This document shows, piece by piece, positions 36,408 to 52,883 of a stretch of 64,000 nucleotides of DNA. The notes under the pieces were generated by a model. The model ran no database searches and was not told the origin of the DNA. It was given only the letters and a program-made list of their open reading frames with translations. The DNA is from Alkalispirochaeta sp. (GTDB lineage: Bacteria; Spirochaetota; Spirochaetia; DSM-27196; Alkalispirochaetaceae). Made by a program: the position numbers and the translations under genes. The first letter of the stretch is position 1, and every line of letters starts with the position of its first letter. The stretch covers positions 2,240,001 to 2,304,000 of the forward strand of contig OZ271854.1 of NCBI GenBank assembly GCA_965601925.1, given 5' to 3'.

Positions 36408-36515
36408 TAAAACCGATGCTCGTGCATACGCCCCGACGTAGCATAACGCGGCTTCTCCGGGAGGGGTTGCTCGTATTTGACGACAGTTCAGGCGATCTCA
36501 ACTGGGAGGGGAACT

Positions 36516-38618
36516 ATGACCGGAGTACCGCGTTATGTCGAAAAACGCGACGGACGGCTCGAGCACTACTCGAGGTCTGCGATTACCGAGGCGATGCGTA
36601 AGGCGTATTGCGCAGTCTATCCGGATCGAGAAGTTCCGGAGATAACCCTGGTGTTACTCACCGATCAGGTGGAACGACGGCTCGAAGCGGTTATCGCCGA
36701 CGATACCGCAGGAGTGAGTGAGCCCCCGCAGTCCGTGCGTACCGGCTCTGAACGCGACGGCGCGACCGCTCCGTCGATCGAGACCATCCAGGACATCGTC
36801 GAGGAGACGCTTATGGCCTCCGGCGAGAGCGCGGTAGCCCGTTCATACATCATCTATCGTGCCCGGCGTGAGGCGGTTCGCGATACCCGCGCACTCATGG
36901 TGGACATCGACAAGACGATGGATGGGTATCTCTCAATGTCCGATTGGCGCGTCAATGAGAACGCCAACGTCAACTTTTCTCTCGGTGGATTGATTCTCCA
37001 CAACTCCGGCACCATTACCGCCAATTACTGGCTCAAGAACATCTACTCGCCGGAGGTTGCCGAGGCGCACCGGAGCGCCGCGTTTCATATTCACGACCTT
37101 TCGATGTTTTCGGGGTATTGTGCCGGATGGAGCTTGCGGCAGCTCATCGAAGAGGGACTCGGCGGTGTGCGGGACAAGATCACCTCAAAGCCGGCCGAAC
37201 ACCTTTCCACCCTTGTGCAGCAGATGGTCAATTTTCTGGGCATCATGCAGAACGAGTGGGCGGGGGCGCAGGCGTTTTCCAGCTTCGACACCTACCTTGC
37301 ACCGTTCGTCCGAGAGGATGCGCTCGCCTATCATGAGGTTAAACAGGCGATCCAGTCCTTCGTCTTCGGCGTCAACACGCCGAGCCGTTGGGGAAGTCAG
37401 GCGCCTTTTACCAATATCACCCTCGACTGGGTCGTACCGGTAGATCTTCGGGAGCGTCCGGCGATTGTCGGCGGTCGTGAGATGTCCTACACCTACGGCG
37501 ATCTTCAGGCGGAGATGGATCTCGTCAACCGCGCCTTTCTGGAGTTGATGATCGCCGGCGATGCCGACGGGCGCGGCTTTCAATATCCGATTCCCACCTA
37601 CAACATTACTCGGGAGTTCGACTGGGAGAGCCCTAACGCCGAGCTCCTCTTCGAGATGACTTCTCGCTACGGGACGCCGTACTTTCAGAATTTCATCAAC
37701 TCCGATCTCGACCCCTCCGACGTGCGTAGCATGTGCTGCCGCCTGCAGCTCGACAAGCGAGAGCTGCGTAAGCGCGGGGGTGGGCTCTTCGGGAGCGACG
37801 AGTTTACCGGGAGCATCGGTGTGGTAACGATCAACATGCCGCGGATCGGGTATCTGTCGCGGACCCGGGAGGAGTTTTTCGCATCTCTCGACAGACTCAT
37901 GGACCTTGCCGCGGAGTCTTTGACGACCAAGCGCAAGGTGATTACCCGGCTGTTGGACGCCGGCCTCTTCCCCTATACGCGACGCTATCTCAAACACCTC
38001 GACAACCACTTCAACACGATCGGCCTGGTGGGTATGAATGAGGCGCTTTTGAACTTTCTCGGCGAGGATATCTTGTCGGAGAAGGGGCGTGTCATGGCCC
38101 TGGAGATCCTCGATCATATGCGGGGCCGCATCGCCGACTATCAGGAGCGCACCGGCGAGCTGTTCAATCTGGAGGCGACGCCCGCGGAGAGCACAAGCTA
38201 CCGGCTGGCGCGGCACGACCGTGAGCGCTACGCCGACATCGTGACCGGCGGCACCGCCGAGTCGCCGTACTACACCAACTCGAGTCAGCTCCCCGTCGGA
38301 TACACGAGCGACATCTTCGACGCTCTGGACCTCCAGGATGCGCTGCAGACGCGCTACACCGGTGGTACGGTGTTTCACTCTTTTTTGGGCGAGGCGGTCG
38401 AGGATTGGCGCGCCGCCCGCAGTTTGGTGCGCGCGATCGCGACCAACTATCGGCTTCCGTACTTCACCGTGAGTCCCACCTTCAGCGTCTGCCCGGTGCA
38501 CGGATACATTCGCGGCGAACACTACACGTGTCCGAAGTGCGCGGAGGAGGAGCGGGAACGGCTTCGTGCGGAGATCCGGTCCCTGGAAGAGGAACGCGCA
38601 TCGGTCGGCGATCGATAA
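36516..38618 (+). CDS. nrdD: Class III ribonucleotide reductase large part (ATP cone and catalytic core, no glycyl-radical loop)
   Basis: VEKRDG ATP cone; SMCCRL, EATPAES, YTGGTVFH and CPVH..CPKC; GGGAGG RBS. Confidence 0.95.
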   Translation: MTGVPRYVEKRDGRLEHYSRSAITEAMRKAYCAVYPDREVPEITLVLLTDQVERRLEAVIADDTAGVSEPPQSVRTGSERDGATAPSIETIQDIVEETLMASGESAVARSYIIYRARREAVRDTRALMVDIDKTMDGYLSMSDWRVNENANVNFSLGGLILHNSGTITANYWLKNIYSPEVAEAHRSAAFHIHDLSMFSGYCAGWSLRQLIEEGLGGVRDKITSKPAEHLSTLVQQMVNFLGIMQNEWAGAQAFSSFDTYLAPFVREDALAYHEVKQAIQSFVFGVNTPSRWGSQAPFTNITLDWVVPVDLRERPAIVGGREMSYTYGDLQAEMDLVNRAFLELMIAGDADGRGFQYPIPTYNITREFDWESPNAELLFEMTSRYGTPYFQNFINSDLDPSDVRSMCCRLQLDKRELRKRGGGLFGSDEFTGSIGVVTINMPRIGYLSRTREEFFASLDRLMDLAAESLTTKRKVITRLLDAGLFPYTRRYLKHLDNHFNTIGLVGMNEALLNFLGEDILSEKGRVMALEILDHMRGRIADYQERTGELFNLEATPAESTSYRLARHDRERYADIVTGGTAESPYYTNSSQLPVGYTSDIFDALDLQDALQTRYTGGTVFHSFLGEAVEDWRAARSLVRAIATNYRLPYFTVSPTFSVCPVHGYIRGEHYTCPKCAEEERERLRAEIRSLEEERASVGDR

Positions 38619-38651
38619 GGCGATAGTATACAGCACCACAGGGAGGGAGTT

Positions 38652-39137
38652 ATGAGAACCGTTACCGAGATCGACACGGAAATCGAGGCCAAACGGGCGG
38701 CGTTACGCGCGGTAACGGGCCGCGAAACCGAGGTCTATTCGCGAATCGTCGGGTACTATCGGAGCTTGCGAAACTGGAATGTCGGCAAGAAGGCCGAGTT
38801 CGGCGAGCGGAAGACCTACGACGCCGCCGCGTCTCTCGCGCGGCGCGAGGAGCCGTCGCAAGAGCGCAACCATCCTGCGACGCCCGCCGCGTTCCAGCTC
38901 TTCACCCGTGCCCATTGTCCGGGGTGTACCGCGGCGAAGATACTCATCGACACGTTGCCCGAGTTAGCGCCGCGCGTCCGTGAGATCGACGTCGACTCAG
39001 AGGACGGGATGCGTCGCGCCGAGGTAGCGCTGATCGCCGTAACACCGACGCTCATCGCACGCGATGAGTCCGGCGGGGAGTTGTGGCGGAGCACCGACCC
39101 GCTCCACATGCGCGATCTTTTCGCTGCCGGCGGGTGA
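38652..39137 (+). CDS. NrdD glycyl-radical domain fused to a glutaredoxin-like CxxC domain
   Basis: EVYSRIVGYYR..NWN.GKKAEF.ER, then LFTRAHCPGC...TPTLI; own GGGAG RBS. Confidence 0.9.
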   Translation: MRTVTEIDTEIEAKRAALRAVTGRETEVYSRIVGYYRSLRNWNVGKKAEFGERKTYDAAASLARREEPSQERNHPATPAAFQLFTRAHCPGCTAAKILIDTLPELAPRVREIDVDSEDGMRRAEVALIAVTPTLIARDESGGELWRSTDPLHMRDLFAAGG

Positions 39138-39814
39138 TTACGCATGTCGGACTCGTGAAAACGAGTCTCGTCGACGTGCCGGGGCGCCTCGCCGCGACAC
39201 TGTTTACCCACGGATGTCCGTTATCGTGCCCGTACTGTCACAACGAGCGCTTGCGGTCCGGCCCGATTCCCGACGAGTTCGTTACGGTCACCGAGGCGGT
39301 GGCCTTCTTAGCCGGACGCGCGGGAATCGTGGAGGCGGTGTGCGTTACCGGGGGCGAACCGCTGATGCACACCGATCTCGCCGATCTCCTCGGCGCGGTA
39401 CGTTCATTGGGATACTACGTCAAGCTCGATACCTCGGGAGCGTATCCCGAGCGATTGCAGGAGCTTTTGTCCCATGGATTGGTAGATATGGTCGCCCTCG
39501 ACATCAAGACGAGTCCTCGGCGGTACCGTGACGTGGGACTCGACGGCCAAACGTTTCTCGACGCGCTCTCCGCGGTGCGCCGCTCCGGCGTGCCGTACGA
39601 GCTGCGAACTACCGTTGCACCCGAGGTCGTCCGTCTCGAGGATATCGAGGACATTGTAGGGCTTGTGGAACCGGGTGAACCGCACGTTCTCGCGCAGTAC
39701 CGTCGTCCCGACGCTCCGGGGAATCATCCGCAACCGTATCCGGCCGGCGTTCTACGGGAGTGGCTGGCGTCGGCACGCGAGAAGAACGGCGCCGCGACGG
39801 TGCGTGGTATATAG
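39134..39814 (+). CDS. nrdG: Anaerobic ribonucleotide reductase activating radical SAM enzyme
   Basis: CPLSCPYCHN, TGGEP and KLDTSG; GTGA overlap with the upstream gene. Confidence 0.93.
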   Translation: MITHVGLVKTSLVDVPGRLAATLFTHGCPLSCPYCHNERLRSGPIPDEFVTVTEAVAFLAGRAGIVEAVCVTGGEPLMHTDLADLLGAVRSLGYYVKLDTSGAYPERLQELLSHGLVDMVALDIKTSPRRYRDVGLDGQTFLDALSAVRRSGVPYELRTTVAPEVVRLEDIEDIVGLVEPGEPHVLAQYRRPDAPGNHPQPYPAGVLREWLASAREKNGAATVRGI

Positions 39815-42937: not shown

Positions 42938-44359
42938 TCACGCCAGAGCCGGGCCGTCTTGGGGACCGCGGCGACTGACCATGATGACGGTCATGTCGTC
43001 GGACTGGCCGTGTTGATAGCGATCGATCTCTTCCTGGAGTTTGCGCAAGCCCGCCTCGGCGCCCCAGGGAGCAAAGCGGGCAAACGCTTGCGTGAGACGT
43101 TCCTGACCGTAGAGCTCGCCGGTGGGAGACTCCGCCTCGGTCACACCGTCGGAAAAGAGAAGCACGCAATCGCCCCCGGCGATCGGTATATCGATACCGT
43201 CTACGAAACCGTCGAGGTCGTCGGCGATACCCAACCAGCTGCCCTTTGTCGCGATCGTTTCGACGCGTCGGGCGACGCGTCGATAGACCAAGACGTCCTG
43301 GTGGTGTCCGGCCACGGTAATGTGATCGTCGCCGAGTTGCATAACGATCATCGTCATGTAGTGGTTGGAGCCGAGGCGCCCCACATTCTCCCGCAACACC
43401 GAGTTGACCGTCTTGAGTACATCGCCCGGTGCACACTCGTCGTGGCCGCGGACGACCGTCGAAACGGCCGTTTGCGCCATCATCATTATCAGGCCCGAAT
43501 CGAGGCCGTGGCCGGCGACATCGCCGATGGTGATGTATCGATCGCCGCCGGTCGTTTCGATGATATCGTAATAGTCACCGCCGACCTCTCGCGCCGGTGA
43601 GAATGCGACCGCGACGTCATAGCCGGTAATCGCCAATCGACGCGGCAATAGGGTCGTTTGGACGCGCTTTGCAAGTTCCATCTCGCTCCACAACGCGTCT
43701 CGCGCTTGCTTCAACTGGACGAGTAACGAAAACTCGGTCTGAATAAGACGAAATCGGACGTGGTTGATCGCCACCGATATCACCGAGGTGCCGACGAGAA
43801 AAAAGAGATTGTTGGCCGCCGCGACTCCGCTGCTGCTGTCGGTCAGAAGAAGGTTGAACCCCACATACATGAGCAGGATGATGATGCAGTTGGCCGCAGT
43901 ATGCGTAGCCCGCCACGGCATGAGGAGGTTCACCCCGATGATGACCATGATGAGTCCCGGATAGTAGCTCGACTCGAATCCGCCCAAATGCACGATCATC
44001 GCCGCAATGATGCCGCCTACCTGGAGCGAGACGAAGTATCCGTGCAGAAATGAGAGTCGGGACGGCTTTGTGTTTCGCACAACGAGGTGCTGCGCGAGAG
44101 CCAACAACGTCGATACGGCGCGATATATCGCGAACAGCACCAATACATCCCGAGGGATGATGAAGATATCGAGAACGAAAAAGAGCGGTACCAGGACGAA
44201 TGTCAGGGCCGTTATCGCACGCAGCCACGAGTGAATGATGCCGTGCTGATACGCCGAGAAGTCGTTTCGATCGATCGCGTCGGTCGTCAAGCCGTTGGGA
44301 TCTTTGTGTCGGAACATACCGAGCGAGTGGTCTATCGGTTCTCTCGTCGCATCAGCCAT
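42938..44359 (-). CDS. Six-TM sensor fused to PP2C/SpoIIE phosphatase
   Basis: Six hydrophobic segments; EVGGDYYD, GDVAGHG, FSDGVTEA and DDMT catalytic motifs. Confidence 0.92.
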   Translation of the reverse strand: MADATREPIDHSLGMFRHKDPNGLTTDAIDRNDFSAYQHGIIHSWLRAITALTFVLVPLFFVLDIFIIPRDVLVLFAIYRAVSTLLALAQHLVVRNTKPSRLSFLHGYFVSLQVGGIIAAMIVHLGGFESSYYPGLIMVIIGVNLLMPWRATHTAANCIIILLMYVGFNLLLTDSSSGVAAANNLFFLVGTSVISVAINHVRFRLIQTEFSLLVQLKQARDALWSEMELAKRVQTTLLPRRLAITGYDVAVAFSPAREVGGDYYDIIETTGGDRYITIGDVAGHGLDSGLIMMMAQTAVSTVVRGHDECAPGDVLKTVNSVLRENVGRLGSNHYMTMIVMQLGDDHITVAGHHQDVLVYRRVARRVETIATKGSWLGIADDLDGFVDGIDIPIAGGDCVLLFSDGVTEAESPTGELYGQERLTQAFARFAPWGAEAGLRKLQEEIDRYQHGQSDDMTVIMVSRRGPQDGPALA

Positions 44360-45767
44360 CTTCGACAGCCGGCTTTCTTACTTGCAAAAAGAGCTGGATC
44401 CCCGTTGCGTCGCTTCGTACGGTCGTCTCCGCTCCGTCGATGTCGGCTGCGAGCTCCAGCATCTCCTCCTCGGTCCGGTAGATAAGCATCCAGTCCATCC
44501 AGTAGGCCATATAGATCATTGTCGGATGTTCCGCCAAAAAGTTTCCGATAATCATCGTGCCGCCGGGCAAAAGAAGGCTGTAGAGCTTTTTTATTACCGC
44601 CGAGGCAACCGGCTTGGTTAGATAATCGAACAATCCCATCGAATAGATAAAATCGAACCGACCCCAGCGCACCTGAAGCTCGCGGGTTACCAACATCGTA
44701 CGCACCGACTCCCGAATGAAATCGGCCGGCAGCGTCGCGCCGAGGCGCTCGGATATCCGCTCGATAACGCCCGCCGCCTCCGACAGCGCATCGCGATCCT
44801 GGTCCAATAGTGAGTAGTGGAGCGCCGCGCAGTCCTCTTTGGTGCGAAGGATTTCGTTGAGTTCCATCGCCGGACCGCACGCTACCGATAGGACCTTTAC
44901 CGGCCGCTCATCGATCGGTACGCGCGCGCTCCGCTCCCGCACGAAGGCGCGCAGTATCTCGGCCAGGTCGACTCGACGGTTGCGCACCGCCTGTGCCGCC
45001 AGCTGTCGTACTGCGTGTTTGTGGACGATCTTTCCGAAGGTCGTTTCTCCTTCGTAGTCGTTGTCGTAGATCATCCTCATCATCTCCGAGTCGCCGATGT
45101 ACCCTCTCGGCTTGAGATTCGTGCGCGCCATAATGTTGGAGCAGAGAATGATGTTCCACATTTGCTTGCGGAAGTAGAATCCGTGGTGGCCGTGTTGCTC
45201 CTCGCTGAAGCCGGCCGTGATTTCTCGAAGGCGCTCGTAGCTCCCGTCCAGGTAGTCCAAAAGGCGTCCACCCAGAGCCTGCACTATGCCTTTCTGGAGC
45301 GTGTCGCGGACCTCACGCGGTTCGTCCTGGATCCGGTCGTCTATCTCGTCGAACATCGCCCGATAGGCGTTGAGATCGTAGGTGAGCGCGGAGACGAACT
45401 CCACGAACTGCGGTTCGATGCGGCGCTTGTAGCTGAGAATGAGCGGAAGGTTGACCGCCGCGGACTCCAGGACTTCCGGTTTTGCTTTGAACAGGAGTTT
45501 TTCGAAGTTGTACATCGACTCCAACGGTACGACGCGGAACTCGCTCGCCTCCTCCTCGTTTTGCGCGCTGAGGACGCAGGGGCCGGTCTCTACCAGTTTG
45601 CCGTCGATCTGGAGCGAAAGCTTGCTATAGGTTGTTTGGCCCGAGTCGGCGCCGCCGTCCTCAAATCGTAGCCAGAGCGAATAGCGTGATGCGTGGCGGA
45701 CGCGTACCGGTATGGTATGGTCGCCGGCGGTAAGACTGCCTTCGAAATAGAGATCCGCGGCGCTCAT
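44352..45767 (-). CDS. Class I SAM methyltransferase, PhcB-like (fatty-acid methyl ester signal synthase family)
   Basis: KPRGYIGDSEMM, AQAVRNRR, VLSVACGPA, FDFIYSMGLFDYL, IGNF and DW.LIYR; PhcB resemblance is from recall. Confidence 0.75.
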   Translation of the reverse strand: MSAADLYFEGSLTAGDHTIPVRVRHASRYSLWLRFEDGGADSGQTTYSKLSLQIDGKLVETGPCVLSAQNEEEASEFRVVPLESMYNFEKLLFKAKPEVLESAAVNLPLILSYKRRIEPQFVEFVSALTYDLNAYRAMFDEIDDRIQDEPREVRDTLQKGIVQALGGRLLDYLDGSYERLREITAGFSEEQHGHHGFYFRKQMWNIILCSNIMARTNLKPRGYIGDSEMMRMIYDNDYEGETTFGKIVHKHAVRQLAAQAVRNRRVDLAEILRAFVRERSARVPIDERPVKVLSVACGPAMELNEILRTKEDCAALHYSLLDQDRDALSEAAGVIERISERLGATLPADFIRESVRTMLVTRELQVRWGRFDFIYSMGLFDYLTKPVASAVIKKLYSLLLPGGTMIIGNFLAEHPTMIYMAYWMDWMLIYRTEEEMLELAADIDGAETTVRSDATGIQLFLQVRKPAVEDG

Positions 45768-45770
45768 TGC

Positions 45771-46145
45771 CTACTCTTTTCCGACTACCGATACCCGGCC
45801 GTCACCGGTAGCGAAAATGGTGAGGGCTACGAACGAGACCGACTGCCACTTTTGCGCGGCGTCGTACAATACCGTGATCCGCGATTGGCCGAGGCGCGCC
45901 TTCTCCAATGTTTTTACCAACGGCGTATACGTCGACGAGTTCATGTACGTGAGACCGCTGAAATCGAGTACGAGCCGTTTGCCCTCCTCATCGGCCTCGT
46001 CCAGCACCTGAATGAGAATCGGCTGCAGAAACTCAGCCGGGTCGCGTAAAATACTCTTCCCTTCGAATACCAATACCAAGTCGTCTGTTATCTCTTCACG
46101 TCTGATCGTCAATGGACCGTCTTGTACACCTTCGAACTGACTCAT
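45771..46145 (-). CDS. SiaC-like (STAS-related) phosphoacceptor protein
   Basis: GKS..RDPAEFLQPIL and LDFSGLTYMNSST; GGAGGAG RBS. Confidence 0.72.
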   Translation of the reverse strand: MSQFEGVQDGPLTIRREEITDDLVLVFEGKSILRDPAEFLQPILIQVLDEADEEGKRLVLDFSGLTYMNSSTYTPLVKTLEKARLGQSRITVLYDAAQKWQSVSFVALTIFATGDGRVSVVGKE

Positions 46146-46161
46146 GAAACTCCTCCCCGAG

Positions 46162-46656
46162 TTACCGCGAAAACTTCGCTACAGCTGATACACGTATCGT
46201 GTTGTCTTCGTCGACGATGAAGTCGATAGCGGCTCTGGCTTCATATGCGATGCGAACGATCCCCAAACCGCTCATCCCTTGACTGGTCGGCTCCCGCGAT
46301 ATCTCTTTGACGCGCTCGACATACGCTTGAAACGGATCTTGAAATCCCCGAATCCACTGAAGCGTCCGGTCCAACTGACGCAGGTGAAAGCGCGTCTCGT
46401 CGCCGATACGGTTTTTAACCTCCACGGTTATCGAAAAACCGACGATCGACAGCATAAGCTCAACCTCGGCACGACTCATGTTCCTGTAGTCGCCGTATTT
46501 GATTCCATTTTCAACGAGCTCACACGCCACCATGGTGTAGGTGTCTACCTCATGATCGGGCATGTATATCGACTCGAGAAACTCGTGAATTTCCTCGTTT
46601 ACCCGCACCATCTCGTTCCAATCGGGTTTTACGCTGATGTGAAACTCTTCACTCAT
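46162..46656 (-). CDS. SiaB-like GHKL protein kinase
   Basis: ELVENGIKYG N-box, VKN, AY.ER and SGLGIVRIAYE G2-box. Confidence 0.75.
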   Translation of the reverse strand: MSEEFHISVKPDWNEMVRVNEEIHEFLESIYMPDHEVDTYTMVACELVENGIKYGDYRNMSRAEVELMLSIVGFSITVEVKNRIGDETRFHLRQLDRTLQWIRGFQDPFQAYVERVKEISREPTSQGMSGLGIVRIAYEARAAIDFIVDEDNTIRVSAVAKFSR

Positions 46657-46690
46657 CGTGCACTCCAATTTCGGCAATCGTACACCATCG

Positions 46691-48742
46691 TTACAACAAT
46701 TCCCCTCGCAATGGTCGTCTCGCAATCGTATCACAACCGCTCTTCAGTATTCTCCCGACATGCTCTTTTTCCATGGGAGGACTGCAAAGATAGCCCTGTA
46801 TCTCCTGACACCCTTTGTCCGCGAGAAAGTTCAACTGCTCGATGGTCTCGACGCCCTCCGCGATGACGCCGCAGCCCAAGCTCTTTGCCAGCGAGATGAT
46901 GGCGGTCACGATCTGCGTGGCGCTCGGGTCCTCCGGGAGATCACGGACAAAGGTTCGATCGATCTTTAGACGGTGAACGGGAAACAACTTAATGTACATG
47001 AGGGACGCGTAACGCGTGCCGAAGTCGTCCACGGCAAGGAACACTCCCATGTCCGCCAGGTCGTTCAGCGTGGGAAGCACTTCGCTGGCGTCGTCGATAA
47101 ACACCGTTTCGGTCAGCTCGATCTCAAGGCACTCGGCGGGAAAACCGGTCTCGTTCAAGATTCGCGCTACCGTATCGGAGAAATCGCGATGACGGAGCTG
47201 GCGTACCGAGGCGTTTACGCCCACTCTGATCGGCGTTCCGTGCTCGTCGGCCCACCGTCGTCCCTGTCGGCACGCCTCGAAGAGTACTCGTTCGCCGAGC
47301 TCGTGAATGAGACCGAAATTTTCGGCGACCGGTATGAACTGACTCGGAGGGACCGCGCCGAACGTCGGGTCGCTCCATCGCGCGAGCGCCTCCACGCCGA
47401 CGACCGCTCCGGAGGTCGTGTCCACCTGCGGTTGGTATTGAACGTATAGCGAACCGTCGGAGATGGCGCGGCGCAGACCGTTTTGGATGCGTAGATTTTG
47501 CGCCGTATCGGCGCGAACCGCGTCGGAGAAAAAGTGAAAATCGTTCTTACCCTGCCGTTTTATGCGGTACATGGCACTATCGGCCTTACGGAGTAGCGGC
47601 TCGACTTCCGTTTGATTGGCCGGGTAGAGAACGATACCGATGCTGGCCGTCGCATGCACCTCTTGTCCCTCTATCTCGATCGGCTTGGATACTGCGTCCA
47701 GGACCTTTCGAGCTACGATCGCCGCGGTGTCGGTCGTTGCTACGTCGCGGGCCAAAATGACGAACTCGTCTCCGCCGTAACGCGCCACCGCGTCGCTCGT
47801 ACGTACCGTCTCGGCCATTTGCCGCGAGACGTGTTGGAGTATCCTGTCGCCGGCGCGGTGACCGAACGCGTCGTTGAGCGCCTTAAATTCATCCAAGTCG
47901 ACCACCATGATCGCGAATCCCTCACCCGTTCTCCTGGCGTTGGTGATTGCGTTGTGTACGTAGTCTTCGAAGAGATAGCGGTTGGGGAGCCCCGTCAGCC
48001 CGTCGTAATGCGCCATGCGACGCAGCTGTTCTTCCGCCTCTTTGCGAAAGCTGATATCGGTAACGAAGGTAAGATAGTGCGTGACCGCCCGGCTCTCGAA
48101 CCGCACCGCCGTTATAAGAATACGAACCGCGATCTGAGCCCCGCCCTTAGTGCGATCCCACACTTCGCCCTGCCAGCTCCCACCGTCGGCCAATGCCTCG
48201 GTAATCTCGGCAAATAACGCCGTATCGCGCTTTGCCGCGATGAGAAAGCTGGGCCACTCTCCGAGAGCGTCGACCTCGGTGTATCCGGTCAGACGCGTGT
48301 AGGCGGGGTTGATATCTATCGTACGAAACTCTTCGTCGGTGACGACGATCGCCTCGTGGGCTTGGGCGTAAATGTGCGCCTTTATGAGGCGATCTTTCTC
48401 TACCTGGCGGCGAGAGGTGATATCGGCGCCGAATACGTACGCAGCCGTCCTCGCTCCGTCGGGGACGAAAAGGAGGCGTACCGATACCGGTCCGGCGGCG
48501 AGGATGCGCTCCTCGGTGCGCGCCGTCTCGCAGGCGGTACGTACGGTGATCGCCCACGGCTCCGGGATGCGGGAACCCACGGTGGCCTGCCACTGTTGGA
48601 GAACCAGCCAGCTCCCCGGATTGGCGTAGACGATCTCTCCGACGCACGATATGACGAGTACCGGGGCCGGGTTCGTCTCCGAGGCTTTCGCGAACGCGTC
48701 AAGTGTAGCTACGTCATAGTGTGTCGAATCTTTATCTGTCAC
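46691..48742 (-). CDS. PAS-GGDEF-EAL c-di-GMP enzyme
   Basis: PAS domains; RTSD I-site plus GGDEF; EAL, DDFGT and QGY motifs. Confidence 0.94.
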   Translation of the reverse strand: MTDKDSTHYDVATLDAFAKASETNPAPVLVISCVGEIVYANPGSWLVLQQWQATVGSRIPEPWAITVRTACETARTEERILAAGPVSVRLLFVPDGARTAAYVFGADITSRRQVEKDRLIKAHIYAQAHEAIVVTDEEFRTIDINPAYTRLTGYTEVDALGEWPSFLIAAKRDTALFAEITEALADGGSWQGEVWDRTKGGAQIAVRILITAVRFESRAVTHYLTFVTDISFRKEAEEQLRRMAHYDGLTGLPNRYLFEDYVHNAITNARRTGEGFAIMVVDLDEFKALNDAFGHRAGDRILQHVSRQMAETVRTSDAVARYGGDEFVILARDVATTDTAAIVARKVLDAVSKPIEIEGQEVHATASIGIVLYPANQTEVEPLLRKADSAMYRIKRQGKNDFHFFSDAVRADTAQNLRIQNGLRRAISDGSLYVQYQPQVDTTSGAVVGVEALARWSDPTFGAVPPSQFIPVAENFGLIHELGERVLFEACRQGRRWADEHGTPIRVGVNASVRQLRHRDFSDTVARILNETGFPAECLEIELTETVFIDDASEVLPTLNDLADMGVFLAVDDFGTRYASLMYIKLFPVHRLKIDRTFVRDLPEDPSATQIVTAIISLAKSLGCGVIAEGVETIEQLNFLADKGCQEIQGYLCSPPMEKEHVGRILKSGCDTIARRPLRGELL

Positions 48743-48866
48743 AACGTCCCGAGACTCTTATGATGTGGCACCATCATAGTCTCTACTCGTTGCGCCTGAC
48801 AATATTCGCGTACCGATTGTTGTCGGAGTGCCGACGGCCCTCCGACAGATGCATGCGGGGTGAGGG

Positions 48867-49328
48867 TTATCTCGTTGCGGTAGGCCACTCGGCGTCGGCG
48901 CGTTCGATGAACCCCTCCAAATCTCCCAGAAAGCGTCGATTGATGCGCTGTGAGAAGTTGAGAAACAGTCTCCCGTCGTGAATGACCCACGCCTCGGGGT
49001 CGATGCGGGCAAAGCTGCCGCTTGCCATAGCATATGCGCACCATCCGCCGTATTCCGGGAGATACTCATCGGGTGACGCAACGAACAGATCGCGATGTTC
49101 GGTGGTCGAGAACTGATATGTCGCTCCGTGGTGCTCCGCGGTGATTGCAGGATCGCCCTCGACCGCCTCCCCGACGGTGAAATACGCCACCGGATCGTAG
49201 CCGTGGATAGCTACGCCGCGCCGGTTTACATTTGTCTCCCGCGAGGTTTGCGCCATCGTATGGAAGGCGAATATCAGCGCAAAGACGACGACAAATCCGA
49301 GAAATACTAAACGGCCTGCATTGTTCAT
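48867..49328 (-). CDS. Secreted YHS-domain protein
   Basis: AIHGYDPVAYF and PEYGGWCAYAM; AAGGAGG RBS. Confidence 0.88.
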   Translation of the reverse strand: MNNAGRLVFLGFVVVFALIFAFHTMAQTSRETNVNRRGVAIHGYDPVAYFTVGEAVEGDPAITAEHHGATYQFSTTEHRDLFVASPDEYLPEYGGWCAYAMASGSFARIDPEAWVIHDGRLFLNFSQRINRRFLGDLEGFIERADAEWPTATR

Positions 49329-49431
49329 AGTGTCCTCCTTGGGCAGCACGCGTTGCGTCGTGTCTGCCGAATCGGTTCCCCGATACTCGGGGTGGTCAAC
49401 ATCAATGTACTGCGATATAGTTGCATCTACA

Positions 49432-50310
49432 ATGAGGACCGGAGCTTTTTTGCCCGCGACGGTGAGTTCGGATGGGCGCGACGAGATCAGATTTGCGGAC
49501 GTGATCTCGGAGCAGGCTCCCCGCGTCGCTCGACGCCTCGGACGGTTCGGCTTGTGGCTCGTCGGCGTCGCGATCGGCCAACGCCCGTTCGGAAGAGCCC
49601 TCAAGCACGTACGAGGGGCGACCCCGCAGGCGTTCCTCAACGCCGCCGTCGCGAGGCTCGACTTACGCATCGACGTCCGCGGCGCCGACCTACTACCCGA
49701 CTCTCCCGAGATTATCGTCGTTGCGAACCATCCCACCGGCGGTGCCGAAGGTATTGCGCTGCTCCAACTGCTCCTGAACCGCTACGGTTCGGTGATCGTG
49801 CCGGCGAATCGCGTCCTCTGTCGTTTGTCGGCGTTGAGCCCGATCATTGCGCCGGTGAACGTATTCGGTACGGAACCTTCCAAGACGCGCGTACCGGAGG
49901 CGCTCGTCCCGCCCGGAACGCCGTTACTGCTCTTTCCCGCCGGGCGTACCGCTCGCGAGCGCGGCGGCGTCATGCACGAGTTTCCTTGGAAACGCGGGTT
50001 CATTCGAGTCGCCCGCCGTTCCGGGCGATTGATCGTTCCGGTATGCGTCGTGGCCCGTTCGTCGCGACTCTTTCGTACGATCGCCGCGGTTCGGCGGCTC
50101 TTGCATTGCCCGATCAATATCGAGATGTTCTTACTGGTCCGCGAAGTGCTCCTGCGACGCAGGCGCATAACGCTCGTAATCGAACGCCCGATAACGAGCG
50201 ACGATTTCGACCACGAGCTCACCGACGCGGCGCGCGCGGAACACATACAAAAGATGGTAGAGGTGACATATGGGAAATACCGAAAACGCGACCCGGCATC
50301 CGCCGGTTGA
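49432..50310 (+). CDS. PlsC-like acyltransferase (OlsA/OlsF N-domain type)
   Basis: VANHPTGGAEG, LFPAG and WKRGF; start uncertain. Confidence 0.82.
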   Translation: MRTGAFLPATVSSDGRDEIRFADVISEQAPRVARRLGRFGLWLVGVAIGQRPFGRALKHVRGATPQAFLNAAVARLDLRIDVRGADLLPDSPEIIVVANHPTGGAEGIALLQLLLNRYGSVIVPANRVLCRLSALSPIIAPVNVFGTEPSKTRVPEALVPPGTPLLLFPAGRTARERGGVMHEFPWKRGFIRVARRSGRLIVPVCVVARSSRLFRTIAAVRRLLHCPINIEMFLLVREVLLRRRRITLVIERPITSDDFDHELTDAARAEHIQKMVEVTYGKYRKRDPASAG

Positions 50311-51220
50311 GTTGGCTCCCGCCGTCGACCCTGCGGCATTGGCTGCGGAGATTGCGTCCTGCGAGCGAATCGCCGTGGTCGGTCGACTTGAGGTGTACGA
50401 TTTTGAGGGCGATTCCGCACCGGCGATGATGCGCGAGATCGGGCGTATCCGAGAGCGGGAGTATCGAGCGATCGGTGCGGGTCGGGGCGGACAGATCGAT
50501 GTGGACTCGTACGATACGGCACCCCATCGCTACCGGCAGATCGTCGTGTGGGATCCACAACATCGCCAACTCGTCGCGATGTATCGTTACGCCCGTACCC
50601 GCGAGGTGTTGGAGACGCTCGGCCTCACGGGACTCCGAACCCACACGATGTTTTCTTTCAGCAAGACGTTTGAACTGGGGGTTCTCTCGTCGGCGGTTGA
50701 GCTCGGCCGCTCGGTCGTCAACAGCGAAGCGTCGGCCGCCATCAGAGGGTTGCACGCCGTGTGGTTCGGGCTGGCATCGATCGTGGAGCGCAATCCGTCG
50801 ATCGCGTTTTACTTCGGGAACGTGACAATCCCCGCCACGATGCCGCCGGAGGCGATCGGCCACATTTTGGCAATGCTGCGCGCCGCATGCGCGCCCGGCG
50901 ACGGCCTTGCAATCCACGACGTCGCGGCGCGAGGGAGCGTCGCCCAACCGTCGCTACCGGTCGACGCGGACGGGTACATTCTCGGTGACCATCGCGGTGC
51001 ACTCGCGACCCTTCGGGAACGCCTTGCACCGCATGGGGTCGCACCACCTCCGATCCTCATGTCCTATCTGAAACGAAGCACGCGACTATGGGCCTTCGAG
51101 AGTGCTCGCGACGACGACTTTGGAGGCGCATGGGAGACGGCTATCGTAATGCCCGTAGCGACCATTACCGATGAAGCGAGACGTTTGTTTTTTGGGGACA
51201 AGAAGGGAGCAACGATATGA
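50270..51220 (+). CDS. GNAT N-acyltransferase (OlsB-like)
   Basis: REIGRIRE..YR..G.G, D.YD, YR and ELGRS motifs. Confidence 0.82.
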   Translation: MGNTENATRHPPVELAPAVDPAALAAEIASCERIAVVGRLEVYDFEGDSAPAMMREIGRIREREYRAIGAGRGGQIDVDSYDTAPHRYRQIVVWDPQHRQLVAMYRYARTREVLETLGLTGLRTHTMFSFSKTFELGVLSSAVELGRSVVNSEASAAIRGLHAVWFGLASIVERNPSIAFYFGNVTIPATMPPEAIGHILAMLRAACAPGDGLAIHDVAARGSVAQPSLPVDADGYILGDHRGALATLRERLAPHGVAPPPILMSYLKRSTRLWAFESARDDDFGGAWETAIVMPVATITDEARRLFFGDKKGATI

Positions 51221-51693
51221 GTGATACGACATACTACGACGGTTTTGCCGAACGATGGACGAAGGCCACCGATGTATTGGCTGAAGAGCACGGTGTCGAC
51301 TCGGTGCTCATCATGAAATCGACTCCCACGCACATGGTGACCGCAGCGAGCGGCGGTGCGGCCCGGCACACCTACGTTCCCGGTGGCGCAGGGCCCAAGA
51401 GCGTCGTGCCGGGACACCATAAGCTCTATTGCGAGCAGGTAATCGACACCGATCGAGTGCTCCACGTGCCCGACGCGGCCGCGGACCCCGAATGGCGCGG
51501 AAACGAAGACTTGGTCAAGTTCGGCTTCGGATTCTATTTGGGAGTTCCGGTACACGATAAGAATGGGACGCCGATCGGCACGGTGTGCGCCTTGCACCCG
51601 TCGTCTCCCGGCGACGATGACGCGTTGGAGAGGCTGCGCGCGTCCCTGTCACGGTTGGCCCGTGAGGTGGAGACCGACATCGACCGACAATAA
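51217..51693 (+). CDS. Stand-alone GAF-domain protein
   Basis: LYCE.VI, VPDA..DPEW..N and YLGVPV...G..IGTVCAL. Confidence 0.88.
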   Translation: MSDTTYYDGFAERWTKATDVLAEEHGVDSVLIMKSTPTHMVTAASGGAARHTYVPGGAGPKSVVPGHHKLYCEQVIDTDRVLHVPDAAADPEWRGNEDLVKFGFGFYLGVPVHDKNGTPIGTVCALHPSSPGDDDALERLRASLSRLAREVETDIDRQ

Positions 51694-51806
51694 CGGATCA
51701 AGCGGCCGGTGGGGTCGTGTCGACCGCGTCGTGCGATAGAGCGCGACGTGTCGGTCAAGCGTGCCTACCGTATTGCCTATCTTCGAATGAGCCGTACACT
51801 GTCGGT

Positions 51807-52883
51807 ATGGCTGTGAAAAAAGAGGCTCCGGACATCGATCACATTCGCAATCTCGTGTTTCAAGGCGGCGGCGTACGCGGTATCGCGTACGTCGGCGCCC
51901 TACAAGTATTGGAGAGCGTCGGCGTCACGAAACACATACGGCGGGTGTGCGGTTCCTCGGCGGGAGCGGTTACCGCCGCGCTGTTCGCCCTTTACGAGGG
52001 AGACGTTGCAAAGATTAAGACGGTGCAACAGGATACCGACTTTTCCCGATTTGCCGACGATCCCGGCGGACCGATTGGAGGCATCGTCCGACTATGGCGC
52101 CGTTTCGGGTGGCACAAAGGAGACGCCTTTTCGCGATGGATAGAGGGGCAGGTCCTATCGAGTCGCGGTGTACGACACATCAGTTTTGCCGATCTCAAGA
52201 AACGGAGCGGCATCGATGTGGTCCTGACGGGGTTCAACTACACAAGGGGGCGTACGATCCTCATGTCGAGCGAGACCACCCCCGATCTCTACGTCGATCG
52301 CGCCGTTCGGATTTCCATGTCGATTCCTCTCTATTTCGCCGGGGTTTTCATCGACGGGAACAATTTCGCGCCCGATACCGGTGCGATCATCGGTAATCCT
52401 GAGAATAAAAGGGTGCACGGGAGGCGGCGCGGCCTGGTGGTCGACGGAGGTACGGTAGACAGGTATCCGATTCGTGTCTTTGATCTGCCCCCGTATGCCG
52501 ACCACCCGTTGGACGGCGAAATCATCGTCGACAGCGAAGATCGTAGCGGCCGGTTTAACAAATCGACCCTCGGGTTTCGGTTGTCGCCGCTGCCGGACGA
52601 TGGAGTGCCGATCGTCGACGGGAAGATCGGAGACAAAAATGTAGCGGCGTACGCGATGGGTCTGGTCTCCATACTACATAGTTACGCCAACGATCGCCAC
52701 TTAGATCCCGAGGATTGGCACCGCACCATTCGCATCGAGCCGGACCCGCCGATCTCTCGCATCGATTTCTCTTTGGACCGCGCGCAGCAGAATTCCCTCA
52801 TCCGGAACGGCGTCACAGCCACCGAGAGGTACCTTTCCGATTACAGCACGGAGTGGCGCAACCACCCGCGCTACCGCACATAA
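51807..52883 (+). CDS. Patatin-like phospholipase
   Basis: GGGVRG, GSSAG, SMSIP and DGG motifs. Confidence 0.92.
   Translation: MAVKKEAPDIDHIRNLVFQGGGVRGIAYVGALQVLESVGVTKHIRRVCGSSAGAVTAALFALYEGDVAKIKTVQQDTDFSRFADDPGGPIGGIVRLWRRFGWHKGDAFSRWIEGQVLSSRGVRHISFADLKKRSGIDVVLTGFNYTRGRTILMSSETTPDLYVDRAVRISMSIPLYFAGVFIDGNNFAPDTGAIIGNPENKRVHGRRRGLVVDGGTVDRYPIRVFDLPPYADHPLDGEIIVDSEDRSGRFNKSTLGFRLSPLPDDGVPIVDGKIGDKNVAAYAMGLVSILHSYANDRHLDPEDWHRTIRIEPDPPISRIDFSLDRAQQNSLIRNGVTATERYLSDYSTEWRNHPRYRT

Follow-up and report, generated by a model that had tools for sequence, protein, structure and literature searches.

A conserved gene cassette in Alkalispirochaeta pairs a PhcB-like methyltransferase with a membrane receptor-phosphatase and a putative partner switch

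In a 64,000-nucleotide window of Alkalispirochaeta sp. (assembly GCA_965601925.1, contig OZ271854.1, positions 2,240,001-2,304,000 of the forward strand), five close-packed minus-strand genes bring together a cyclic diguanylate (c-di-GMP) enzyme, a kinase-like protein, a small STAS protein, a PhcB-like methyltransferase and a membrane receptor-phosphatase. All but the first form a core cassette which, we believe, makes and senses a methylated fatty-acid-type signal, with the phosphatase setting the phosphorylation of the STAS protein and c-di-GMP as the likely output in this organism; we put the probability of this reading at about 55%. From homology, we judge the cassette to be a genuine variant of Phc-type signalling in which the receptor would be a phosphatase that acts on a partner switch. 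The initial annotation knew of no description of such a hybrid, and the open-access papers and preprints searched contained none; PhcB was absent from all 30 papers listed out of 107 in one search, and the single Leptospira literature match for the methyl ester had the ester in its reference list only. The five genes and a nearby promoter candidate are, in window coordinates:

46691..48742, minus strand: gene 1, PAS-PAS-GGDEF-EAL protein of 683 amino acids (aa), cytoplasmic, an accessory output (Pfam, motifs and orthologue survey)
46162..46656, minus strand: gene 2, GHKL/Bergerat-fold kinase-like protein of 164 aa, SiaB/slr1658/SpoIIAB-like (profile models and motifs)
45771..46145, minus strand: gene 3, small STAS protein of 124 aa, SiaC/slr1659/SpoIIAA-like (profile models and motifs)
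44352..45767, minus strand: gene 4, PhcB-like class I S-adenosylmethionine (SAM) methyltransferase of 471 aa (homology and fold match)
42938..44359, minus strand: gene 5, membrane receptor-phosphatase of 473 aa, PhcS-type six-helix domain plus PP2C (Pfam, hidden Markov model (HMM) and AlphaFold)
48773..48802, minus strand: sigma70-like promoter candidate directly 5' of gene 1 (10/12 matches; weak)

The layout first described for this locus, with gaps of 34, 16 and 3 bp followed by an 8-bp overlap, is confirmed exactly, and the domain calls agree with Pfam and NCBIfam scans, in which PAS, GGDEF and EAL score above cut-off and SpoIIE/PP2C reaches 111 bits. The length of the kinase-like protein is counted from an ATG; the longest open reading frame (ORF) begins with GTG at 46734. 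A sigma70-like site also precedes the next gene downstream of the cassette (42897-42868), and with four such sites found against 3.4 expected by chance the promoter signal is weak. The kinase, STAS and methyltransferase genes are each single-copy in the genome by BLAST, and the guanine-cytosine content of the module is 0.58 against 0.60 for the genome.

The strongest evidence for a functional unit is conservation. The best 80 of 245 confirmed stretches from a GTDB scan, two of which repeat the genomes G001 and G038 and whose tallies cover the close clade, contain the kinase-like gene in 74 cases, STAS in 72, an adjacent membrane PP2C in 66 and the membrane domain anywhere in 75. The kinase-like, STAS, methyltransferase and membrane PP2C genes occur all together in 65/80, and because four of the five genes keep their order in these loci, the arrangement is not due to chance. 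The neighbourhood proposed at the outset is thus conserved for the core, while the c-di-GMP gene falls outside it. Among the 15 incomplete loci four are cut off by the end of a contig and two are interrupted by an additional gene; one (L028) has a methyltransferase without a partner, in a genome with no membrane-domain match. Metagenomes give the same picture: in the best 80 of 378 kinase-anchored loci, those with enough flank have STAS in 63/67, the methyltransferase in 61/61 and the membrane PP2C in 32/34. In a phylum sample of 401 spirochaete genomes, whose counts span related lineages and are not independent, the strong matches to the methyltransferase (41, in 38 genomes) and to the kinase (also 41) pair one-to-one as direct neighbours, and both sets stand far above the next scores. 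The cassette is found in Spirochaetota, Thermodesulfobacteriota, Myxococcota, Gammaproteobacteria, Calditrichota, Fidelibacterota and SAR324; it is intact in six loci (L232-L237) whose protein clusters include Leptospira borgpetersenii, L. weilii and L. mayottensis, and present in one of 16 same-genus genomes searched (G001). Three genomes (G365, G157, G238) have two copies, ~13-14 kb apart in G365 and G238.

The methyltransferase had been called a PhcB-like signal synthase, which holds in that it is a full-length homologue with shared motifs, though a distant one from a separate clade and not an orthologue. Standing in for the Ralstonia solanacearum sequences, the PhcB and PhcS comparators were Cupriavidus, Paraburkholderia and Janthinobacterium proteins so named. 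The reference locus, on a Paraburkholderia plasmid, has the order methyltransferase, kinase, two regulators; its methyltransferase is 64-70% identical to Cupriavidus proteins, some of them named PhcB, its kinase cluster is named PhcS, and the methyltransferase has Arg22, a residue that PMC6989110 calls conserved in PhcB. Against a named Cupriavidus PhcB (P0292) the window protein shows 29% identity over 295 aa (E 4e-37), profile-profile comparison gives a probability of 100 over 420 columns, and 47 alignment columns are at least 90% conserved in both families. Many close homologues are named “3-hydroxypalmitic acid methyl ester biosynthesis protein” (JGI), an automatic label. Pfam matches are weak (Methyltransf_20, 25.8 bits, cut-off 21), and a PDB sequence search with the methyltransferase alone gave nothing useful. 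The AlphaFold model (mean predicted local distance difference test, pLDDT, 90.7) has an all-beta N-terminal domain plus a helix (beta domain 8-81), a helical cap (107-282) and a Rossmann fold (290-464). Its best fold match by two methods is 3OCJ (E 4e-12; Z 20.2, root-mean-square deviation 3.1, 252 aligned, next 18.1), described in PMC5426589 as an orthologue of FmtB, a fatty-acid methyltransferase, crystallised with probable palmitate. On the strength of this fold match, the substrate is likely to be a fatty acid.

The receptor half of the argument concerns the N-terminal part of the phosphatase, a six-helix PhcS-type domain at about residues 34-223 (43691-44260), followed by a PP2C part with metal-binding Asp motifs. 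The description as a six-transmembrane phosphatase is borne out by AlphaFold, which gives six helices (pLDDT 94.5); a hydropathy scan gave five segments. An HMM of the N-terminal 190 residues, built from cassette loci only, matches 124 ORFs within cassette loci and scores 63 and 50 bits on PhcS-named proteins; the best unrelated score among 477 membrane-rich ORFs of the same genome is 9.2 bits. By hhalign the domain matches PhcS at 99.3, with an alignment that included one Pseudanabaena kinase. On this profile evidence, the membrane domain of the phosphatase is homologous to the PhcS sensor, a step that the initial annotation needed but did not claim. Residues D31, Y99/Y100 and N151 (A2 numbering) are conserved, and at least two copies of the domain occur in 37/80 loci. 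Fusions of the domain to other outputs also sit beside these methyltransferases; the outputs of the 20 scanned non-PP2C fusions are histidine kinases, kinase-receiver-HD-GYP hybrids, Hpt-kinases, adenylate cyclases and GGDEF-EAL. Distinct methyltransferase clades adjoin the domain, namely PhcB-PhcS, methyltransferases of five genomes (G059/G053/G039/G049/G026), that of a Pseudanabaena plasmid and a PilZ-bearing type, the last in 11/11 copies among the 401 spirochaetes. In the same sample, 58/65 methyltransferase-bearing genomes carry the domain and 321/401 have neither.

The nearest folds are ImcA (Z 16.8) and the adenylyl cyclases AC5 (14.7) and AC9 (14.6), with the next at 9.2, and the profile match to AC5 has an E of 1e-4. 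MASE8 (PF20968) gave no match for the window domain and matched 1/26 family members, at E 1.6e-5, with the PhcS comparator P0341 at 16.4 bits against a cut-off of 26.2; CqsS and LqsS are not among the listed profile or fold matches. A single related protein was found among the 477 membrane-rich ORFs, a second receptor ~23 kb before the window (G000:C1:2216955-2219000; L198:6956-9001, plus strand), in which the six-helix domain is joined to intact-looking GGDEF and EAL domains. Through this receptor the signal might act on c-di-GMP directly.

Genes 2 and 3 complete the composition of a partner switch (PP2C, GHKL kinase and STAS protein with a phosphorylatable serine), with catalytic motifs intact. 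The kinase-like protein has an N-box (E46-N50) and a G2-like SGLG at 129, without the DxG G1 motif. The N-box is kept in 77/79 family members, the STAS NSS motif in 75/78 and the PP2C metal-binding motifs in 60-68 of 68. STAS S70, in YMNSS, aligns by motif with T68 of SiaC (LYLNTSS), the phosphorylated residue (bioRxiv 10.1101/674879). The assignment of both proteins to the Sia type is doubtful: they fall below the SiaB and SiaC cut-offs and score better on the slr1658 and slr1659 models. The kinase-like protein matches DUF6272 at E 0.02 (15 bits, cut-off 26.6; 11/21 members at E<=0.01) and the SiaB structure 6KKO at E 0.62, and 6/21 family members match NF038262 (SiaB; best E 0.0012). For the STAS protein, PF09345 (SiaC) gives 22.7 bits (cut-off 24.5) and matches 18/21 members, and the NCBIfam SiaC model matches 6/21, weakly. 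The best-scoring models are the slr1658 superfamily NF047703 (20/21 members) and the slr1659 superfamily NF047705 (21/21), at 38.7 and 28.6 bits against cut-offs of 100; structure matches to SpoIIAB and SpoIIAA are weak. By analogy, we infer that the two proteins would function in a Sia-like way though they are probably not Sia members. At three loci (L056:9882-10394, L077:9722-10321, L093:1325-1792) a diverged kinase-like gene, its N-box lost in L056 and L093, lies 3' of the methyltransferase, with neither STAS nor PP2C, and is followed by a membrane-domain gene (a histidine kinase in L077).

Gene 1 has the motifs for c-di-GMP synthesis and breakdown alike: GGDEF at 323, the RxxD I-site at 314, DDFGT at 572, KIDR at 593, AEGVET at 628 and QGY at 649. 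Its first PAS domain is family-specific (ANxxSW motif) and strongly conserved, and marks orthologues in 18/80 loci, 17 of them directly upstream, and in 5/41 spirochaete modules. All five strong matches to this PAS among the 401 genomes lie directly upstream of the cassette, and 28 other genomes have weaker matches of the type, at unrelated positions. The link of the c-di-GMP gene to the cassette is real but accessory, and c-di-GMP is not, as first proposed, a fixed part of the system. In Leptospira-type loci the slot of gene 1 is taken by a REC-PAS-adenylate cyclase (scanned in L232, with similar N-termini in L234, L235 and L237). A small PilZ gene lies 3' of the PP2C in 13 loci and a second type in five; none was found in this genome. 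In Natronospirillum sp. (L052:4976-7531), PAS-PAS-GGDEF-EAL and the kinase-like protein form one 851-aa ORF, a true fusion or a sequence error.

In the mechanism we favour, the methyltransferase would use SAM to methylate a fatty-acid carboxylate, and the ester would gather in or outside the membrane and bind the six-helix domain; we regard these two steps as probable. Ligand binding would shift PP2C activity on STAS Ser70, opposing the kinase, and from the motifs such antagonism at Ser70 is very probable. Unphosphorylated STAS would then bind a partner enzyme as SiaC does with SiaD, the nearest candidate being the co-transcribed PAS-PAS-GGDEF-EAL protein; that STAS acts on this enzyme is less likely than not.

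Several observations weigh against the signalling cascade as a whole. Overall identity to PhcB is 22% (101/455 aligned), and a 45-row tree, made by a quick method, sets the window clade (31 rows, Shimodaira-Hasegawa-like approximate likelihood ratio 99) apart from PhcB (seven rows) on long branches; with such low identity and separate, long-branched clades, product and role need not match those of PhcB. For FmtB, the available part of PMC5426589 reports no in vitro activity detected and no signalling role, and a partner protein controls ImcA, for which the accessible portion of PMC10904736 mentions no small-molecule ligand. The six-helix domain occurs without the methyltransferase in 21/29 carriers among 61 relatives and in 15/73 carriers among the 401 genomes. 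At the output end, the c-di-GMP gene is missing from 62/80 loci and 36/41 modules, and gene 1 has a short linker in place of a SiaD-like stalk between PAS and GGDEF. It is on the long SiaD stalk that SiaC acts (PMC8457831).

In one alternative the target of the switch is the methyltransferase itself: the signal would activate the phosphatase, and STAS, or the freed kinase, would bind its N-terminal beta domain and tune synthesis post-translationally in a feedback loop, the c-di-GMP gene being a passenger read-out. We consider this unlikely. The methyltransferase alone is always co-inherited with the switch (41/41; 61/61), and STAS and the methyltransferase N-terminus have been lost jointly in three different deletions (L025, 7674-9068; L146/L173, L146:6474-7616; L147/L148, L147:6115-6972), a combination that suggests feedback on the synthase. 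STAS adjoins the N-terminal domain, however, so that co-deletion may be positional, and three loci (L090, L056, L077) retain a full methyltransferase without STAS. That the domain is a regulatory slot is argued by canonical PilZ-like motifs (RxxxR and DxSxxG) in two methyltransferases of rearranged cassettes (L183, 8225-9661; L238, 7511-8938), and a Leptospira-type methyltransferase (L234, 373-1833) has a Pfam PilZ match above cut-off. For the N-terminal domain of the window protein itself, the sequence tests did not establish PilZ homology: Atlas top matches are PilZ at 0.85, a lead only, yet Pfam PilZ is found in 0/26 family members, hhalign gives 0.2 on a poor 8-row alignment, and the c-di-GMP-binding RxxxR and D/NxSxxG motifs were not found. 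There is precedent for a partner switch whose target is an enzyme (PMC13555669). The N-terminus of PhcB may itself be a degenerate PilZ. A related methyltransferase with a PilZ-like N-terminus is found at L012:7694-9448, and in L025 the deletion has joined kinase residues 1-135 to the methyltransferase from residue 112.

A second alternative dispenses with a diffusible signal. The methyltransferase would detoxify or remodel free fatty acids, as proposed for FmtB (PMC5426589), and the membrane domain would monitor the lipid state, or anchor dimers or protein contacts, in a membrane-stress partner switch. The FmtB fold match without a signalling role, the many orphan receptors, and short homologues beside a desaturase or inside a polyketide synthase fit such a function, as does the membrane domain being common to ImcA and mammalian adenylyl cyclases, whose ligands PMC12414865 treats as unsettled. 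But the closest characterised pair with both parts, PhcB-PhcS, is proven as synthase and receptor (PMC7694676 and PMC6989110), and in several clades, separate from each other and differing in output, the long-form enzyme adjoins the membrane domain. We rate this alternative as quite unlikely.

By analogy with RpfR and RpfF in diffusible signal factor (DSF) signalling, the PAS domains of gene 1 might sense the signal or bind the synthase directly and independently of the switch, a reading that we find very unlikely. The strongly conserved first PAS, with its five strong matches all directly upstream of the cassette, and the score on PRK10060, 387 bits where the cut-off is 782, would suit it; the weaker PAS matches in unrelated places of 28 other genomes do not. 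Finally, a CheR-like adaptation mechanism in which the membrane receptor is methylated, to which the constant adjacency of methyltransferase and receptor, a weak Pfam CheR SAM-domain match (E 0.006) and CheX and CheA-like genes near some loci might point, has a negligible probability in view of the full-length PhcB homology and of fold lists headed by small-molecule methyltransferases, with CheR absent among the listed fold matches.

The favoured scheme of a sensed lipid ester and a partner switch can be set against known systems. The Phc system (phcBSRQ of Ralstonia, Cupriavidus and Paraburkholderia) likewise has a methyltransferase, homologous over its full length, and as the very next gene a receptor whose six-helix domain is homologous. 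In the cassette, however, the receptor output is a PP2C instead of a histidine kinase, the methyltransferase belongs to a separate clade (the 22% identity above), no PhcR/PhcQ receiver gene is among the five, and kinase and STAS genes are added. SiaABCD of Pseudomonas aeruginosa shares a membrane PP2C, a GHKL kinase and a STAS-like protein with an N-(S/T)-S site beside a c-di-GMP enzyme; unlike it, the cassette has another sensor domain, PAS-PAS-GGDEF-EAL in place of the stalked SiaD, and an embedded methyltransferase. The SiaA model NF038263 reaches 49.6 bits against a cut-off of 700 on the PP2C part only (residues 217-460), and the SiaD model covers only the GGDEF part of gene 1 (138.6 against 290 bits). 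FmtB (BP2936) and 3OCJ of Bordetella have the helical cap, Rossmann fold and fatty-acid pocket, but at 16% identity, without the N-terminal beta domain and with no signalling neighbours reported in the part of PMC5426589 available. ImcA, AC5 and AC9 have the same six-helix fold as the cassette receptor (CqsS and LqsS being alike by design), whereas the cassette domain is fused to PP2C and paired with a methyltransferase. The slr1658 and slr1659 superfamilies provide the best models for the kinase-like and STAS proteins at scores far below cut-off, and the nine papers listed under these names show no such cassette.

To our knowledge, quorum-sensing receptors are transcription factors, histidine kinases or c-di-GMP enzymes, so the wiring of a phosphatase receptor into a partner switch would, if true, be new. 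The cassette could, on a broader view that we consider unlikely, represent a quorum-sensing architecture that is both widespread and mobile, where a Ser/Thr phosphatase receptor reads a PhcB-like lipid autoinducer, the partner switch closes the autoinduction loop on the synthase, and second-messenger outputs are interchangeable (c-di-GMP here, the REC-PAS-adenylate cyclase in Leptospira-type loci). Were this architecture true, spirochaetes including pathogenic Leptospira would gain a candidate autoinducer, and a lipid ligand would be paired genetically with the six-helix domain that mammalian adenylyl cyclases also have. Whether six-helix domains of the adenylyl-cyclase type are lipid receptors is debated (PMC12414865, PMC4821796), and the cassette allows this to be tested with a paired synthase. 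With hosts that are cultured and harmless (Saccharospirillum, Natronospirillum, Aquisalimonas and Anaeromyxobacter), the signal can be sought directly.

Relatives of the methyltransferase appear in several other settings. A short homologue is in an operon with a fatty-acid desaturase in Deinococcus (L200:1338-4696), another homologue ends a type I polyketide synthase on an Enterobacter plasmid (L201:3610-6747), and a cyclopropane fatty-acid synthase gene lies upstream of the Paraburkholderia phcB-like methyltransferase (L096:4382-5404). Short homologues of ~370 aa (L242-L244), and one of 501 aa (L245), have no membrane receptor within ~7 kb. On a Pseudanabaena plasmid (L097:6920-9539), a short methyltransferase, a receiver gene and a kinase that has this six-helix domain lie beside a Tn3 transposase and a recombinase. 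The methyltransferase is also present in 126 Rhizobium plasmid records, and in the one locus opened (L199:1417-4717) a short PhcB-like methyltransferase is divergent from a membrane GGDEF-EAL gene, whose membrane part resembles the six-helix domain by eye and was rejected at 6 bits, within control noise.

Around the operon, the minus strand at 48851-49328 encodes what we take to be a small secreted protein resembling a YHS-domain protein, the longer ORF having no Pfam match. The plus strand at 49321-52883 encodes a pair of glycine-lipid acyltransferases resembling GlsA and GlsB, which score below the NCBIfam cut-offs, together with a solitary GAF protein and a patatin; neither the flanking aldo-keto reductase nor the acyltransferase/patatin genes recur with the cassette among the matches listed. 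Further away, at 36477-39814 (plus strand), the sequence reads as an anaerobic ribonucleotide reductase, a small NrdD-tail/glutaredoxin-like fusion and an activase.

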